Below, in pieces: positions 1 to 23,901 of a stretch of DNA of 27,207 nucleotides (position 1 is its first letter; every line of letters begins with the position of its first letter). A program made the position numbers and the translations under genes. A model generated the notes under the pieces. That model did not search any database, had not been told where the DNA came from, and saw nothing but the letters and a program-made list of their open reading frames with translations. Source of the DNA: a virus (lineage: Duplodnaviria > Heunggongvirae > Uroviricota > Caudoviricetes); IMG/VR virus record IMGVR_UViG_2619619134_000016; one strand, given 5' to 3'.

Positions 1-105
1 TTTTCTCTTGTTAATGGCATCTTCAGTAAATACTGGGTTACTGATAGTGACACCAATTTCAAAACAACCTTCAGACGTATTAACGTTTGGTAATAACGTT
101 TTCAT
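1..105 (-). CDS. dicB: Cell-division inhibitor DicB, N-terminal 35 codons only; the gene runs off the left edge of the window
   Basis: Minus-strand translation from the ATG at 105..103 gives MKTLLPNVNTSEGCFEIGVTISNPVFTEDAINKRK, matching the DicB N-terminus as I recall it; position downstream of DicF fits the dicB operon. Confidence 0.75.
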   Translation of the reverse strand, partial: MKTLLPNVNTSEGCFEIGVTISNPVFTEDAINKRK

Positions 106-279
106 TATCGCGTCCTCAACAATGAATTTTGTGATGCAGTGCCTGGTGCCTCCAGGTGACGTTAACCAGTTAACAATTAACGCCGGATACAGAGAATCCA
201 CCCATAACACTGTTTTTGGTTTTAACTGTTCCGCGTGCGCTCAGCCGCATTCACCACATCACAAAATTCACTTTAAAAA

Positions 280-332
280 GGGCGGCAGAGCAGTCACGGA
301 GTAAAACTGATACCGCCAAACGTCACCAGAAA
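280..332 (-). ncRNA. dicF: DicF small RNA (53 nt), antisense regulator of ftsZ and other mRNAs
   Basis: Reverse complement of 280..332 reads TTTCTGGTGACGTTTGGCGGTATCAGTTTTACTCCGTGACTGCTCTGCCGCCC and is followed by a T-run on that strand; this matches the DicF sequence as I recall it and its place between ydfC and dicB. Confidence 0.75.
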
Positions 333-672
333 ATTGATAACAGAGGGCGTTGCAGCGGGGTTGTCACTTAAGCGTATGGTCAACCTGACAACCCGGTGTC
401 CTCAACGGGGAAGGAATAACCCCGCCATACTTACCGCCGCGCCATTTCGCGGGTTGCCACAACCGGAAGCGCACGGTCGACGAAAATTTAACGACAGGCT
501 ATCTATGAACCAGCTACCTCGCCGTGCGCTTTCGCGTTATGGTCTGACTTTTCAGGGAAATATCCTTTCAGTAAACTGTCAGTGCCGGATGCTCACCCGT
601 GTCCGGCGCACGCACTCCACCTCACCCGTGGAGAACTCCTTAATTACTAACCTTAGCTTTGTTGATTAGCTA

Positions 673-891
673 CTAACGCGGGTATGTAATCATTCTGGCA
701 ATGCTTAATGCCGCTGCTTTTTCCAGATTGGTGATATCCTGCTCCAGAGCGGACAGATTTTCAGCCTGCTTAGCCCTGGTTTCATTGGCCCATTTCAAAT
801 CCTGCGCTGCATTAATTTTCTGGCGCATCCACTCATAAAGTTCATCATCGGTATAGTCTGGCGCGATGATGACGGGTTCTCGTTTCTGCAT
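673..891 (-). CDS. ydfC: Small dicB-operon protein, 72 aa
   Basis: 72-aa ORF in the track, in the expected position and orientation between ydfB and dicF; assignment by size and synteny, not sequence memory. Confidence 0.6.
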   Translation of the reverse strand: MQKREPVIIAPDYTDDELYEWMRQKINAAQDLKWANETRAKQAENLSALEQDITNLEKAAALSIARMITYPR

Positions 892-920
892 ACTGATTCC
901 TCGCGGTGCTGTTTCGCTTA

Positions 921-1049
921 TCAGCCGTTAGATTTTGCCGAACTGGAAAGCGCCTGTTTAAATTCGTTGAAGCTGAGAGCTTCTTCGCCGTCGGCAAGAC
1001 CTTCGAAGTATTCTTCGTAAGCCTTTTCCATGATTGTGTCGAAATCCAT
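921..1049 (-). CDS. ydfB: Small acidic dicB-operon protein, 42 aa
   Basis: Hand translation of the minus strand from ATG 1049..1047 to TGA 923..921 gives MDFDTIMEKAYEEYFEGLADGEEALSFNEFKQALSSSAKSNG (42 aa); size and position match ydfB. Confidence 0.6.
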   Translation of the reverse strand: MDFDTIMEKAYEEYFEGLADGEEALSFNEFKQALSSSAKSNG

Positions 1050-1050
1050 A

Positions 1051-1206
1051 TCACTCACCTGGGTTTCTTTCCAGCCAGCGACGGGCACCATTTTCGGTTT
1101 TAAACGTTTTGCTTTTGGTATACGTCATCGCGGTGAACGTACCGTCCTGGTTGGGGAACACGCCACATACCAGAGATTCGCTGTTGCCAAGATCGATAGT
1201 ATCCAT
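1051..1206 (-). CDS. ydfA: Small dicB-operon protein, 51 aa
   Basis: Internal ATG at 1206..1204 of the 69-aa track ORF gives a 51-aa product MDTIDLGNSESLVCGVFPNQDGTFTAMTYTKSKTFKTENGARRWLERNPGE; first gene downstream of dicA on the same strand. Confidence 0.65.
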   Translation of the reverse strand: MDTIDLGNSESLVCGVFPNQDGTFTAMTYTKSKTFKTENGARRWLERNPGE

Positions 1207-1320
1207 GCTGACCTCATTTCCCCTTAACGCCGGGGTAGCGGAACTGTTTGCTGAGAACACCGTGCGGTGTCTTGATGGAAAATAATTTAGAATAACCTAA
1301 CATGAGAGGCAAGTGTTTTT

Positions 1321-1338
1321 TGTTAGATTGATCTAACA
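1321..1338. promoter_or_regulatory. Near-perfect 18-bp palindrome TGTTAGATTGATCTAACA in the dicA to ydfA intergenic region; candidate DicA operator at the dicB-operon promoter
   Basis: Read directly; shares TGTTAGA/TCTAACA half-sites with a second palindrome at 1832..1849. Confidence 0.5.
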
Positions 1339-1374
1339 AAAAGGGTGGGCGCAACTAATCACTTGAAAAGAATG

Positions 1375-1782
1375 TTATTTTATTGATTTATTTTTACGCG
1401 CTTTAAGCATTTCTTCGAAGAGTTTGTTGAAGTTTTCTACTCTTGCGCGCATTTCAGACAGCAAGGCTTCCTGCTCGGAAGATGGAAGAGCATCGAATAA
1501 TTCGATCAATTCTTTGTGGTTGGGAGTTAGCTCTGTTTCCACATGAAGTTCTTGTGCAGGCACTGGTGCCTTGTCTTCGTCACCAAACATTAGCCATGTA
1601 GGTGAGCACTTCAGAGCATCCGCTAAAGCAAACAATCGTTTTCCGACTGGCTGGGTTTCGTCTCTTTCCCATTGTGAAATTGTGACGTGAGCAACTCCAG
1701 CGAGGCGCGCGGCTTCTCGTTGTGTTAAGCGTAATTCTTTTCGTCGCGCCAGAACTCGCTGGCCCAGGGTTCTTGTATCCAT
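1375..1782 (-). CDS. dicA: HTH (XRE-family) repressor, cI-like, 135 aa
   Basis: 135-aa ORF with an N-terminal helix-turn-helix signature (LRLTQREAARLAGVAHVTISQWER), divergent from a Cro-like gene and directly upstream of ydfA; size and context match DicA. Confidence 0.8.
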   Translation of the reverse strand: MDTRTLGQRVLARRKELRLTQREAARLAGVAHVTISQWERDETQPVGKRLFALADALKCSPTWLMFGDEDKAPVPAQELHVETELTPNHKELIELFDALPSSEQEALLSEMRARVENFNKLFEEMLKARKNKSIK

Positions 1783-1804
1783 AGTTAGGTAATTCTAATT
1801 TTTC

Positions 1805-1849
1805 TTGACTTAGGTATCCCGCGCACAATAATGTTAGAAAAGTCTAACA
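1805..1849 (+). promoter_or_regulatory. Putative dicC promoter (-35 TTGACT 1805..1810, 17-nt spacer, -10 ATAATG 1828..1833) overlapped by palindrome TGTTAGAAAAGTCTAACA (1832..1849)
   Basis: Hexamers and palindrome read directly from the sequence; typical cI/cro-type switch geometry. Confidence 0.5.
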
Positions 1850-1859
1850 AGAGGGGGCT

Positions 1860-2090
1860 TTGATGCTTAAAGTTGACGCAATTACTTTTTTTGGCAGCAA
1901 AACAAAGCTTGCCAATGCCGCAGGAGTGAGGCTGGCAAGTGTTGCTGCTTGGGGGATACTGGTTCCTGAAGGTCGCGCGATGCGTCTACAGGAGGCATCT
2001 GGCGGGGAGCTTCAGTATGATCCCAAAGTTTATGATGAATATCGTAAGACGAAGCGGGCGGGGCGGTTGAACAATGAAAATCACTCCTGA
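1860..2090 (+). CDS. dicC: Cro-like small regulator, 75-76 aa
   Basis: Track ORF of 76 aa begins at TTG 1860; an ATG at 1863 sits 7 nt after a GAGGGGG Shine-Dalgarno, so the true start may be 1863. Divergent from dicA; size matches DicC. Confidence 0.7.
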   Translation: MMLKVDAITFFGSKTKLANAAGVRLASVAAWGILVPEGRAMRLQEASGGELQYDPKVYDEYRKTKRAGRLNNENHS

Positions 2091-2595
2091 ACAGGCTCGT
2101 GAGGCTCTGGATGCCTGGATATGTCGACCAGGAATGACACAGGAGCAGGCGACGATATTAATCACTGAAGCATTCTGGGCTTTGAAAGAGCGCCCGAACA
2201 TCGATGTTCAGCGTGTCACAGATGAAGGTGGCGCGGTTGATCAGCGAGCGCTTGGTGTTAATCGAGTGAAGATATTCGAACGCTGGAAGGCTATCGACAC
2301 CAGGGATAAGCGTGAAAAGTTCACGGCGCTAGTGCCTGCGATTATGGAGGCTATCCGGATTAGTGATTTCAGGTTGTATCGTGAAATTACTGACGGAAAA
2401 AGCATCACGTGCATGATCGCCGGGTTAAACAAAGAATATGGCGATGTGGTGGAGTCCGGACTGCTTTTTGCTGATCCTGCCGTAGTGGATCGTGAAACTG
2501 ACGAACTTATAGAAAAAGCAATTGCTTTCAAGCTTGCGTATCGACAGCAATACCAACAAAAAGCTGGATGGAATTATGAGCCTTCTTTTTGCTGA
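2074..2595 (+). CDS. Hypothetical early-region protein, 173 aa, in the cII/YdaT-like position after the cro-like gene
   Basis: 173-aa ORF whose ATG at 2074 overlaps the dicC stop; no motif I can assign. Confidence 0.45.
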   Translation: MKITPEQAREALDAWICRPGMTQEQATILITEAFWALKERPNIDVQRVTDEGGAVDQRALGVNRVKIFERWKAIDTRDKREKFTALVPAIMEAIRISDFRLYREITDGKSITCMIAGLNKEYGDVVESGLLFADPAVVDRETDELIEKAIAFKLAYRQQYQQKAGWNYEPSFC

Positions 2596-3541
2596 ACGCC
2601 CACTGGTTATAAACACGCAGCTGGCAATGAAAATTGGCTTAAACGAAGCCATTGTTTTGCAACAACTGCACTACTGGTTGAGAGATACCAACTCCGGCAT
2701 GGAATGTGATGGTGTTCGCTGGATTTATAACACAACGGAACAATGGCTTGAACAGTTCCCATTCTGGTCAGAGTCAACGTTAAAGCGCGCGTTTGCAAGT
2801 CTGAAAACGCTGGGGCTTTTGCGTTGTGAAAAGCTCAATAAATCAAAGCGCGATATGACCAATTTCTACACGATCAACTATGGGAGCGAGCTTTTAGATG
2901 GTGGCAAATTGAGCGAATCCATCGGTTCAAAATGCGCCGCTCCATCAGGTCAAAATGACACGATGGAAGAGGTCAAAATGAAACGCTCCATTGGTTCAAA
3001 ACGACCCAATGTCATCGGGTCAAAATGGCCTGATGATCTTACAGAGAATACAACAGAGATTACTACAGAGAATAAAAACACTTTTCGTCCGGAAGCTTCG
3101 CAACCGGACCCGCAGACGACTGAACAGGATTCTTTAACCCGGAACTCCGACGCGGTTGTGTTTAGTGCGAAAAAACGCCAGTGGGGTAGCAGGGAGGATT
3201 TGGCGTGTGCGCAGTGGATCTGGGGGCGGATCGTGGGTCTCTACGAACAGGCAGCCAGTGATGATGGCGAGATCATGCGACCAAAAGAGCCTAACTGGAC
3301 TGCCTGGGCCAATGACGTGCGCACAATGCGGATGCTGGATGGCAGAAGCCACAGACAAATTTGCGAAATGTTTGGTCGGGTTCAGCGAGATCCATTCTGG
3401 GTAAAAAACATCATGAGCCCGTCAAAGCTCCGCGAAAAATGGGACGAACTGGTCATCCGCCTGGGACGTTCACCTGTACAGCGTTGTGTTAATCATATTT
3501 CTGAACCGGATACAGAAATTCCGCCTGGTTTCAGAGGATAA
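2576..3541 (+). CDS. Phage replication initiation protein (O-like / replisome organiser), about 321 aa from ATG 2576; track ORF begins at TTG 2522
   Basis: Position after the immunity region; the coding sequence contains five tandem iterons followed by an AT-rich tract, the arrangement of ori-lambda inside gene O. Start codon choice is uncertain. Confidence 0.55.
   Translation: MSLLFAERPLVINTQLAMKIGLNEAIVLQQLHYWLRDTNSGMECDGVRWIYNTTEQWLEQFPFWSESTLKRAFASLKTLGLLRCEKLNKSKRDMTNFYTINYGSELLDGGKLSESIGSKCAAPSGQNDTMEEVKMKRSIGSKRPNVIGSKWPDDLTENTTEITTENKNTFRPEASQPDPQTTEQDSLTRNSDAVVFSAKKRQWGSREDLACAQWIWGRIVGLYEQAASDDGEIMRPKEPNWTAWANDVRTMRMLDGRSHRQICEMFGRVQRDPFWVKNIMSPSKLREKWDELVIRLGRSPVQRCVNHISEPDTEIPPGFRG
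2924..3090. repeat. Candidate replication origin: five direct iterons GGT(T)CAAAA(T/C)G at 2924, 2948, 2971, 2993 and 3018, then an AT-rich tract (3031..3090) with ACAGAGAATA repeated at 3041 and 3065
   Basis: Repeats read directly from the sequence, spaced 22-25 bp apart. Confidence 0.55.
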
Positions 3542-5688: not shown

Positions 5689-6022
5689 ATACAGCGAACT
5701 CCATTGGTTTAGTTGGATATTTACTGTGCTGGACAAAAACGGTTTGCGGGGAAATCTTAGTTAAGTAGAATGACTGCGGGTGCTTGAGGCTATCTGCCTC
5801 GGGCATGGACACCAACGGCAGATAGAGAAAAGCCCCAGTTAACATTACGCGTCCTGCAAGACGCTTAACATTAATCTGAGGCCAATTTCATGCTAGACAC
5901 ATGTAGGTTAGCCTCTTACGTGCCGAAAGGCACGGAGAAGCAGGCTATTGTTAACACCAAGCTGTAATGTCCCCTTTGAACCATTCTAAAATGTCCCCAG
6001 ACAATTCTCTGGGGGATTTTTC

Positions 6023-9262: not shown

Positions 9263-9418
9263 ATGAAGCAGCAAAAGGCGATGTTAATCGCCCTGATCGT
9301 CATCTGTTTAACCGTCATAGTGACGGCACTGGTAACGAGGAAAGACCTCTGCGAGGTACGAATCCGAACCGGCCAGACGGAGGTCGCTGTCTTCACAGCT
9401 TACGAACCTGAGGAGTAA
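9263..9418 (+). CDS. hokD: Hok-family membrane toxin HokD (RelF), 51 aa
   Basis: Hand translation from ATG 9263 to TAA 9416..9418 gives MKQQKAMLIALIVICLTVIVTALVTRKDLCEVRIRTGQTEVAVFTAYEPEE; below the track cutoff. Confidence 0.85.
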   Translation: MKQQKAMLIALIVICLTVIVTALVTRKDLCEVRIRTGQTEVAVFTAYEPEE

Positions 9419-9634: not shown

Positions 9635-9886
9635 ATGATGAACATCGAAGAACTGCGTAAAATTTTTTGTGAAGATGGCCTCTATGCTGTGTGCGTTGAA
9701 AATGGAAATCTTGTTAGTCATTACCGCATTATGTGTTTGCGAAAGAATGGGGCTGCGTTAATTAATTTTGTGGATGCTCGGGTCACGGACGGATTTATCT
9801 TGCGCGAAGGTGAGTTTGTCACTTCATTACAGGCATTGAAAGAGATCGGAATAAAAGCTGGCTTTTCTGCTTTTTCAGGAGAATAA
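9635..9886 (+). CDS. rem: Rem, small prophage protein, 83 aa
   Basis: 83-aa ORF immediately downstream of hokD, matching rem by size and position. Confidence 0.6.
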   Translation: MMNIEELRKIFCEDGLYAVCVENGNLVSHYRIMCLRKNGAALINFVDARVTDGFILREGEFVTSLQALKEIGIKAGFSAFSGE

Positions 9887-12670: not shown

Positions 12671-12980
12671 TTTAGGGGACAGAAAAACTCCTTAATACTG
12701 ATAACCTGGTGCACCATACACACGTTCCTGGAGAAAACTACTTTTTTGATAGGATTGAAGGTGGCTGGATGTCTAAAATAAACATTGCTTCATATGTTCA
12801 ACTATGAGTTAATGACTGCGTCGGTTTGAAGAACAGACGATATACGAAGTAGTTTACTAAAGCAGTTCTCATTTCAGGTGTTATTCACTTATTCCTTCTT
12901 TGAGTCTCTCCAATTAAGTACGAAGTCGTTTCTGTTATGCAAACCATTTATGCCGAAAGGCTCAAGTTAAGGAATGTAGA

Positions 12981-13196
12981 ATGTCAAATAAAATGACTGG
13001 TTTAGTAAAATGGTTTAACGCTGATAAAGGTTTCGGCTTTATTTCTCCTGTTGATGGTAGTAAAGATGTGTTTGTGCATTTTTCTGCGATTCAGAATGAT
13101 AATTATCGAACCTTATTTGAAGGTCAAAAGGTTACCTTCTCTATAGAGAGTGGTGCTAAAGGTCCTGCAGCAGTAAATGTCATCATTACTGATTAA
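12981..13196 (+). CDS. cspB: Cold-shock protein CspB, 71 aa
   Basis: [71 protein letters not shown]; CspA family with RNP motifs; long 5' leader typical of cold-shock genes. Confidence 0.85.
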
Positions 13197-13477
13197 AATT
13201 CATCGCTCGTCTGTATACGATAACGAAGAAGGCTGATGCCTGAGTAGAGATACGGACAGAGTAGTGAATATTGGATCTCTTTAATAAAAAGTAAGGAGGT
13301 CCAATACATGAAACAATGGCCAGCATATTTGGCAAAATCTTAATCAGGAAAAGTATGCTAACCATTGTGGTGAAGTGCAGGTTTGCTGCATGAATAGTTT
13401 CACAGCAGAAGCTAACTGCTGGCATCGCAAAACAAAGTGCGTAAGTGGATGACTCCCACAAAAAGCACCACAATCTC

Positions 13478-15505: not shown

Positions 15506-15866
15506 GGTAATATTAAATCGGAACATTTACATCGCGGAATGTAAAATTTAAATAAAAAGGACTCTTCCATGAGCCAAAATTCCTGAAATCTTAAGGGTAA
15601 GATAAAAGGTCTTAATCAGAATGACACGTTTTATTAATAAATAAAGCTATTCTTTCATTGCTGTGTTTTTCTTTACAAAAGTAATCCTTGCTATGGGTGG
15701 TTAATCATGCGTTAATGGTGTTCTGGTTTGTTACAAATTTATCTGAAGCAGTCATTGTTATAATTTTATTATTTGTACCTCTTGAGATTTCCTTGTTGGT
15801 TTTTCTCTCTGATATTTTTTTCGGACCATTCTGCCCAAGGGCTAATTTCTTCAAAAGGTAATAATT

Positions 15867-16079
15867 ATGTCTAACAAAATGACTGGTTTAGTGAAATGGT
15901 TTAACCCTGAAAAAGGTTTTGGTTTCATCACGCCGAAAGATGGCAGCAAAGATGTGTTTGTCCATTTCTCAGCAATTCAGAGCAACGATTTCAAAACATT
16001 AACTGAGAATCAGGAAGTTGAATTTGGTATTGAGAACGGACCTAAAGGTCCTGCCGCTGTTCATGTAGTGGCGCTTTGA
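15867..16079 (+). CDS. cspI: Cold-shock protein CspI, 70 aa
   Basis: [70 protein letters not shown]; CspA family. Confidence 0.85.
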
Positions 16080-16284
16080 GGTAGACAATATTACAAACCA
16101 TATTCACTTTAGATGCCCGTGTTGTCATGGTTCCCAGTATAGAACATCATCTTTTGATGTTTCTGACATGAATCCTTTCGGGGCAAAATGTATCTTTTGT
16201 AAATCAATGATGATTACATTTGATAATATTTCACAATACTTAAATGCCAGCCGTCTGTCGTTGGATTTAAAAAAGTGAAAATGA

Positions 16285-23326: not shown

Positions 23327-23901
23327 TGGTATTCAGAATGAGTGAACAACCACGGACCATAACAATTTATAATCTGCTGGCCGGAACTAATGAATTTATT
23401 GGTGAAGGTGATGCATATATTCCGCCTCATACAGGTCTGCCAGCAAACAGTACCGATATTGCACCGCCAGATATTCCGGCAGGCTTCGTGGCTGTTTTCA
23501 ACAGTGATGAGGCATCGTGGCATCTCGTTGAAGATCATCGGGGTAAAACGGTTTATGACGTGGCTTCCGGCGACGCGTTATTTATTTCTGAACTCGGTCC
23601 GTTACCGGAAAATGTTACCTGGTTATCGCCGGAAGGGGAGTTTCAGAAGTGGAACGGTACAGTCTGGGTGAAGGATACGGAAGCAGAAAAACTGTTCCGG
23701 ATCCGGGAGGCGGAAGAAACAAAAAACAGCCTGATGCAGGTAGCCAGTGAGCATATAGCGCCACTTCAGGATGCTGTAGATCTGGAAATCGCAACGGAGG
23801 AAGAAACCTCATTGCTGGAAGCCTGGAAAAAGTATCGGGTGTTGCTGAACCGTGTTGATACATCAACTGCACAGGATATTGAATGGCCAGCACTGCCGTA
23901 G
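23326..23901 (+). CDS. tfaQ: Tail fibre assembly protein Tfa, 191 aa
   Basis: Start overlaps the stf stop (TAATG); 191 aa; follows stf as in lambda and Qin. Confidence 0.8.

Follow-up and report, generated by a model that had tools for sequence, protein, structure and literature searches.

Two copies of a palindrome, TGTTAGA-N4-TCTAACA, bracket a dicA-like repressor gene near one end of the window, by which we mean the whole stretch of DNA analysed here, 27,207 nucleotides from a virus of the Caudoviricetes (IMG/VR record IMGVR_UViG_2619619134_000016). The original prediction took them for a two-operator immunity switch in which one repressor would control both its divergent partner dicC and the downstream division-inhibitor operon ydfABC-dicF-dicB. 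Are the two palindromes operators, are they the only ones at the locus, and which protein would read them?

The idea of a shared repressor is already known, having been published as a model by Béjar et al. 1988, as far as that model is represented in the passages of PMC3441716 and PMC10448788 that credit the operators to it. What is added here is a map of four sites, the assignment of the dicB core-promoter site as the weaker neighbour of the perfect palindrome, and covariation across operator classes.

Gene content and prophage context

By its sequence, the window is an Escherichia coli Qin-family prophage. Many E. coli chromosomes contain its first 2.6 kb with 100% identity, within a Qin-family prophage that lies beside rspAB and has an integrase and an excisionase; most of this region is present in 689 of 5,426 complete E. 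coli genomes. The predicted gene calls (dicA, dicC and ydfABC-dicF-dicB) hold, as judged from protein domains, identity to K-12, Rfam and RefSeq annotation. The genes considered here are:

1..1206, minus strand: dicB operon, with ydfA, ydfB, ydfC, DicF and the 5' part of dicB
1-105, minus strand: 5' part of dicB (RefSeq annotation of identical DNA)
280-331, minus strand: DicF RNA (Rfam, 76.7 bits)
673-891, minus strand: ydfC (RefSeq annotation of identical DNA)
921-1049, minus strand: ydfB (RefSeq annotation of identical DNA)
1051-1206, minus strand: ydfA, DUF1391 (RefSeq annotation of identical DNA)
1375..1782, minus strand: dicA-like repressor, 135 aa, with a C2-type helix-turn-helix and a short helical C-terminal part
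1863..2090, plus strand: dicC, 75 aa, P22_Cro at 4.9e-12, 86% identical to K-12 DicC
9263-9415, plus strand: hokD
9635..9883, plus strand: rem, antirepressor, 100% identical to K-12 Rem over 83 aa by tblastn

The locus holds a divergent pair composed of a short C2-like helix-turn-helix repressor and a P22 Cro-like protein. The repressor matches HTH_3 at 1.5e-14 and is 57% identical to K-12 DicA. Among PDB entries, its residues 1-71 match the N-terminal domain of P22 C2 with an E value of 1e-18, and the PDB matches stop at residue 71. Peptidase_S24, sought in this protein by family search, gave no match, and only helix-turn-helix families were found. The locus is the known P22-like DicA/DicC immunity region in an allelic form.

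Two perfect palindromes flank dicA

Site 1, TGTTAGATTGATCTAACA at 1321-1338, and site 2, TGTTAGAAAAGTCTAACA at 1832-1849, both read from the window, match TGTTAGA-N4-TCTAACA with 0 mismatches and lie at exactly the predicted positions. Site 1 is placed between the stop of the dicA-like gene (1375) and the start of ydfA (1206), again as predicted, and site 2 between the ATGs of dicA (1782) and dicC (1863). The arms of site 1 are 8 bp long around a 2-bp centre, and T5/A5 flanks lengthen them to perfect 12-bp arms; those of site 2 are 7 bp long around a 4-bp centre. The motif TGTTAG-N6-CTAACA has 2 matches in the 27,207 bases, compared with 0.00 in 100 dinucleotide-preserving shuffles, and a chance origin of the two palindromes is excluded.

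Palindromes of this kind might instead form hairpins in RNA or DNA, such as a terminator following dicA, or be chance repeats. With its T5/A5 flanks, site 1 gives an 11-bp hairpin of -10.5 kcal/mol (z = -2.4), situated 37 bp past the dicA stop. However, its stem is A/U-rich, no U-run follows it on either strand and a terminator scan gives no match at this place. The right arm reads CATACA in K-12, which breaks the hairpin and keeps one half-site, and other alleles have constant half-sites around a variable centre. Given the missing U-tail, the lack of a terminator-scan match and the broken K-12 arm, a terminator or hairpin role for site 1 was rejected; repeats arising by chance are ruled out by two exact copies against 0 expected. 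We give this reading as a whole almost no credence and treat the palindromes as candidate operators.

Two further, weaker sites

With the core relaxed to GTTAG-N6-CTAA, four distinct sites are found, all in the dicA region, where 0.09 matches would be expected in the window (six matches were scored for the four sites, the perfect palindromes being counted on both strands). The two additional sites are 1285-1302, ATTTAGAATAACCTAACA, with 10/12 half-site bases matched, and 1783-1800, AGTTAGGTAATTCTAATT, with 9/12. A half-site score of 9/12 is by itself insignificant, since the window contains ten such matches, and the weight of 1783-1800 comes from its conserved position rather than from its score. 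The putative operators are:

1285..1302, no strand: proximal dicB-promoter operator, TGTTAGGTTATTCTAAAT on the minus strand, 10/12, P22 OL1 counterpart
1321..1338, no strand: distal dicB-promoter operator, perfect TGTTAGA-N4-TCTAACA, P22 OL2 counterpart
1783..1800, no strand: Oa operator, weak, AATTAGAATTACCTAACT on the dicA strand, 9/12, P22 OR3 counterpart
1832..1849, no strand: Oc operator, exact motif match, P22 OR1 counterpart, aligning with K-12 Oc

The prediction of a two-operator switch was wrong in this respect, as there are four sites, one strong and one weak per promoter. Oa adjoins the dicA ATG and shares bases with a -10-like TAGAAT. Between paired sites the distance is 35-36 bp on the dicB side and 49-50 bp on the dicC side, spacings that do not support placement of paired sites on the same helix face. 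A search for one more operator on either side (K-12 Om/OR2, and OL3) gave no conserved third site: the best score at the OR2 and OL3 positions was 7/12, which is background in that it is reached 313 times in the window.

Placement of the putative operators relative to the promoters

The sites were related to two promoters:

1805..1832, plus strand: dicC promoter, -35 TTGACT at 1805-1810, 16-bp spacer, -10 AATAAT at 1827-1832, scan score 10/12
1284..1312, minus strand: putative dicB-operon promoter dicBp, -35 TTGCCT at 1312..1307, 17-bp spacer, -10 TAAATT at 1289..1284

The dicC promoter (dicCp) is the sole promoter-like match that a promoter scan returned in the region, and its -35 element is invariant across alleles and P22 (AAGTCAA on the dicA strand). 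Taking the A at -11 as in K-12, transcription would start near 1839. Site 2 spans about -7 to +11 of this promoter. The proposed overlap of the second palindrome with the dicC -10 element thus stands for the last -10 base only, on which the site begins; it is the start site that is overlapped more.

The dicB-operon promoter scores 8/12 against consensus, which is under the scan threshold, and its position was set by alignment with K-12 (TTGACC/TAATCT) and P22 PL; the 17-bp spacing is preserved across alleles. Its start would lie near 1277. A rough independent check on this placement comes from K-12, where the start estimated from the RNase III site 813/814, the 190-nt DicF species and the annotated dicF end falls 2-7 nt past the -10 TAATCT. 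The numbering 813/814 counts from the start of the transcript, and it is at this RNase III site that the 190-nt DicF species begins (PMC10448788).

The -35 and -10 elements of dicBp are flanked and overlapped by the two related operators 1321-1338 and 1285-1302, upstream of ydfABC-dicF-dicB. The proximal site would lie at about -25 to -8, covering the spacer and part of the -10, and the distal palindrome 8 bp upstream of the -35, at about -61 to -44. At dicBp, the core-promoter site is the weaker 1285-1302, and the perfect palindrome stands upstream of the -35. The right half of 1285-1302, CTAAAT, appears to double as the -10 TAAATT, so a perfect CTAACA would be impossible there.

Several other features of these promoters were observed. 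An A-tract, AAAAAACAC at 1313-1320 on the minus strand, separates the distal operator from the dicBp -35. It is like a proximal UP element and is retained in the other alleles as well as in the P22 PL region (L108, 2235-2243); a repressor bound at the distal site would lie next to this tract or cover it. The dicCp spacer contains a GC-rich block at 1815-1825 (plus strand TATCCCGCGCA; dicA strand TGCGCGGGATA) at the position of P22 OR2, which is present in 6/8 TGTTAG-type alleles and absent in K-12. There is no Shine-Dalgarno sequence before dicA, and the -10-like TAGAAT (1797..1792, minus strand) ends 9 nt before its ATG, so the dicA mRNA probably has little or no leader. The lambda cI mRNA from PRM is likewise leaderless, and P22 c2 shows the same -10-to-ATG geometry as dicA.

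Comparison with the Qin prophage of K-12

The window shares with K-12 Qin the gene order (dicC diverging from dicA, followed by ydfABC-dicF-dicB), the TGTTAG/CTAACA half-sites, the positions of the sites relative to the dicA ATG and stop, the location of Oc over the dicCp start, a 135-aa repressor without a cleavage domain, and a 100% identical Rem. Site 2 aligns with K-12 Oc, TTGTTAGTCATAACTAACAA, with identical half-sites and only the centre different; the TTGTTAG/CTAACAA half-sites of Oc are thus present over the dicC promoter of the window. The proximal site 1285-1302 aligns with K-12 TGTTAGTCATGGCTAATC. The two loci differ in the operator centres, the dicCp spacer and the DicA allele (57% identical), as well as in the distal dicBp site, whose right half is degenerate in K-12 (CATACA), whereas the window has a perfect palindrome. 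After dicC, K-12 has ydfX and ydfW where the window has ydaT and replication genes.

Yun et al. 2012 (PMC3441716) describe the K-12 counterpart of site 2, TTGTTAGTCATAACTAACAA, as the 20-bp operator Oc. According to that work, (i) multicopy clones of Oc were recovered only with point mutations, (ii) DicA represses a reporter in vivo through the cloned 20-bp Oc, (iii) the A-to-C change CTAACA to CTCACA in Oc abolishes DicA repression and binding, (iv) a 90-bp fragment is shifted by a DicA-containing crude extract, (v) Oc overlaps the dicC promoter -10, the dicC start having been determined by 5'RACE with an A at -11, and (vi) dicA transcription requires DicA and its binding at Oc (PMC3441716). 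Om and Oa, operators predicted from sequence, are not bound by DicA in vivo in K-12 (PMC3441716). Because K-12 DicA is mostly insoluble, there is no footprint with the purified protein (PMC3441716).

At the other promoter, deletion of dicA in K-12 raises dicBp activity 22-fold, and deletion of dicC leaves it unchanged (Ragunathan & Vanderpool 2023, PMC10448788). The claim that DicA represses the dicB operon therefore agrees with the K-12 reporter assays (PMC10448788), in which the dicBp operators are predicted DicA-binding sites. The same study reports that Rem relieves DicA repression in K-12 and that DicA and DicC act as a bistable pair (PMC10448788). Elsewhere, overexpression of DicC lowers dicA expression in O157:H7 (PMC6915034), and genomic SELEX work lists DicA and DicC as prophage transcription factors without site data (PMC8249747).

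Comparison with P22 and other repressor systems

The window has 18-bp two-fold symmetric sites of the P22 type, in which the outer bases are conserved and the centre is free. Its sequence aligns almost base for base with the cro-c2 and c2-PL regions of P22 immC, such that Oc corresponds to OR1, 1783-1800 to OR3, 1321-1338 to OL2 and 1285-1302 to OL1. Also shared are both -35 elements, the operator adjoining the repressor ATG, a homologous N-terminal repressor domain (45% identity to c2 over residues 1-80) and the Cro family. The spacings are close, with OL1-OL2 at 35 bp and OR1-OR3 at 48 bp in P22 and about 36 and 49 bp in the window. The P22 repressor recognizes 18-bp sites through contacts at positions 2-7 and 12-17, with indirect readout of the four central bases (PMC4267663), a contact rule that fits the conservation pattern seen in the window.

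Three differences limit the comparison. First, the half-site is ATTTAAG in P22 and TGTTAGA here, although the geometry is the same. Second, the OR2 and OL3 counterparts are degenerate in the window (7/12), and P22-style cooperativity and OR2 activation are therefore not simply transferable. Third, C2 has a C-terminal domain for S24 peptidase activity and cooperativity, whereas DicA has a short, unrelated C-terminal part; without an S24 peptidase, induction would proceed through an antirepressor and not through RecA. Gifsy GfoR and GfhR are likewise short, non-cleavable repressors freed by a small antirepressor (discussed in PMC10448788). The Gifsy antirepressors are under LexA control, and the likeness of the Gifsy system to DicA/Rem is one of short length, lack of a cleavage site and mode of release.

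Conservation and covariation across alleles

To place the window allele among its relatives, 101 loci encoding DicA relatives were taken from viral and genome collections, representing 26 distinct proteins. All alleles with the helix (A/S)HV(T/S)(I/V)SQWE, which come from Escherichia, Citrobacter, Rahnella and phage contigs, have four sites at fixed offsets, namely 67-68 bp (Oc) and 18 bp (Oa) before the dicA ATG, and 31-41 bp (distal) and 67-76 bp (proximal) after the dicA stop. A MAFFT alignment of eight alleles whose proteins are 48-94% identical to that of the window leaves the half-sites and both -35 elements invariant. Among 16 variants of Oc and 22 of the distal dicBp site, nearly all match 12/12, positions 1-6 and 13-18 being invariant and the central six bases free to vary.

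Alleles with other recognition helices have palindromes of other sequence at the same offsets, and within each locus those at the dicC and dicB promoters match. SLWES-helix alleles, a class that includes phage mEp460_ev081, have (T)TGAG-N4-CTCAA palindromes; FKWEN-helix alleles have TAACT-type sites; and an Enterobacter allele (L087 type) has CCTTAGG-N4-CCTAAGA. The O157:H7 locus also has a CCTTAGG-type sequence, as seen in a published primer (PMC6915034). The helix of DicC changes in step with the operator class. Operators that covary with the recognition helix are expected if the locus's own regulators read both promoters, and the pattern supports a model in which one regulator pair, DicA and DicC, would act at both. 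Control of both promoters by one repressor, as the original prediction had it, is supported by the Oc counterpart, by dicBp repression in K-12 and by the covariation between alleles.

Since DicA and DicC both vary along with the operators, covariation does not tell which of the two reads them. One alternative is that the palindromes are mainly sites for the Cro-like DicC, with DicA repressing the dicB operon via other DNA or indirectly. Operator class covaries equally well with the helix-turn-helix of DicC and with that of DicA; the half-sites are the same in the window and K-12, between which DicC is 86% identical and DicA only 57%; and overexpressed DicC lowers dicA expression in O157:H7 (PMC6915034). 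In K-12, however, DicA is necessary and sufficient for repression via the cloned 20-bp Oc, and dicA deletion abolishes that repression (PMC3441716), while dicBp responds to deletion of dicA, with the 22-fold rise, and not to deletion of dicC (PMC10448788). In addition, the DicA recognition helix is nearly the same in both alleles (AHVTISQWE vs SHVSVSQWE). In lambdoid switches, repressor and Cro share operators, and DicC binding would thus be expected besides that of DicA, not instead of it. We consider the reading of the palindromes as mainly DicC sites improbable.

Host factors (YjdC, or H-NS together with Cnu) could also be what binds the palindromes and controls the dic locus, with the phage proteins secondary. 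YjdC, a TetR-family protein, gives a ChIP-qPCR signal at the dicC operator region in a study that has no DicA site data (PMC9283627). CnuK9E and H-NS antagonise DicA at Oc, and DicA-independent bands appear in the crude-extract EMSA (PMC3441716). Yet the operators change with the prophage's own DicA and DicC alleles, in other genera and free phages as well, which a fixed host factor does not explain, and the architecture is homologous to that of the P22 operators. Primary control by host factors therefore has a very slim probability, slimmer than that of DicC as the main reader, although YjdC and H-NS/Cnu may modulate the locus.

DicA-type immunity regions also occur in two isolated temperate phages, PhiR42_1 (L106) and mEp460_ev081 (L107). 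PhiR42_1 encodes a DicA protein identical to that of K-12, in a locus with the same GTTAG-type sites; mEp460_ev081 has an SLWES-helix allele and no GTTAG sites. The two phages indicate that the DicA family spans several immunity specificities in functional phages.

Proposed mechanism

A DicA dimer very probably binds both palindromes, 1321-1338 and 1832-1849, which would be operators of a P22-type immunity region in a Qin-family prophage. The dimer, with a C2-like helix-turn-helix and no self-cleavage domain, would read TGTTAG half-sites 6 bp apart. DicA at Oc would cover the dicCp start and so block dicC. On the other side, the distal perfect site 1321-1338 and the proximal imperfect site 1285-1302 would jointly silence ydfABC-dicF-dicB; DicA binding at both dicBp sites is inferred, as are the exact promoter positions.

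The Cro-like DicC presumably recognizes this family of sites too. On the analogy of Cro and OR3, its likely preferred target is Oa (1783-1800), where it would shut dicA off, and a bistable switch would result. Such a preference agrees with the lowering of dicA expression by overexpressed DicC and with the lack of DicA binding at Oa in K-12. As DicA is not RecA-cleavable, release would occur via the antirepressor Rem, heat or urea.

A joint reading would make the locus a P22-like switch minus OR2 and OL3, with one strong and one weak site per promoter and with cross-immunity between alleles that are 57% identical. We put this forward tentatively and regard it, taken as a whole, as rather unlikely. 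If it is true, (i) the 'activation' of dicA at Oc is not an OR2-style contact with RNA polymerase, (ii) activation would stem from lifting the occlusion that the strong back-to-back dicC promoter causes, or from DNA looping, and (iii) Qin-like prophages in one cell, or an incoming PhiR42_1, would cross-regulate each other's division inhibitors. The two strong palindromes are 511 bp apart, a candidate looping distance.

Significance

When DicA control is lost in K-12, the cells filament. Knowledge of the K-12 operators is transferable to a common, diverged DicA allele, and the combination of several operator specificities with a fixed architecture is a possible guide to immunity-group typing of Qin-like prophages and phages. 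The practical value is limited, and no open question is made newly testable.

Other features of the prophage

Rem is identical to that of K-12 even though the DicA of the window is only 57% identical. The antirepressor must target a conserved surface of DicA or be mismatched to the repressor of the window; the best-conserved part of DicA is the C-terminal region, residues about 88 to 130.

The gene after dicC belongs to the ydaT family (2074-2595, plus strand); it stands at the cII position, and 17 nt of it overlap the end of dicC. Next come an O-like replication gene (2576-3541), a DUF977 gene and a methyltransferase gene. The genes from ydaT to the methyltransferase are missing from K-12 Qin, so the prophage in the window keeps more of the early-right operon. 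Rfam matches at 5778-5949, 12820-13243, 15722-16106 and 23669-23867, all on the plus strand, comprise a sok antitoxin RNA (apart from the copy at hokD), two cspA-type 5'UTR thermoregulators and IS009 RNA, which are usual Qin cargo.
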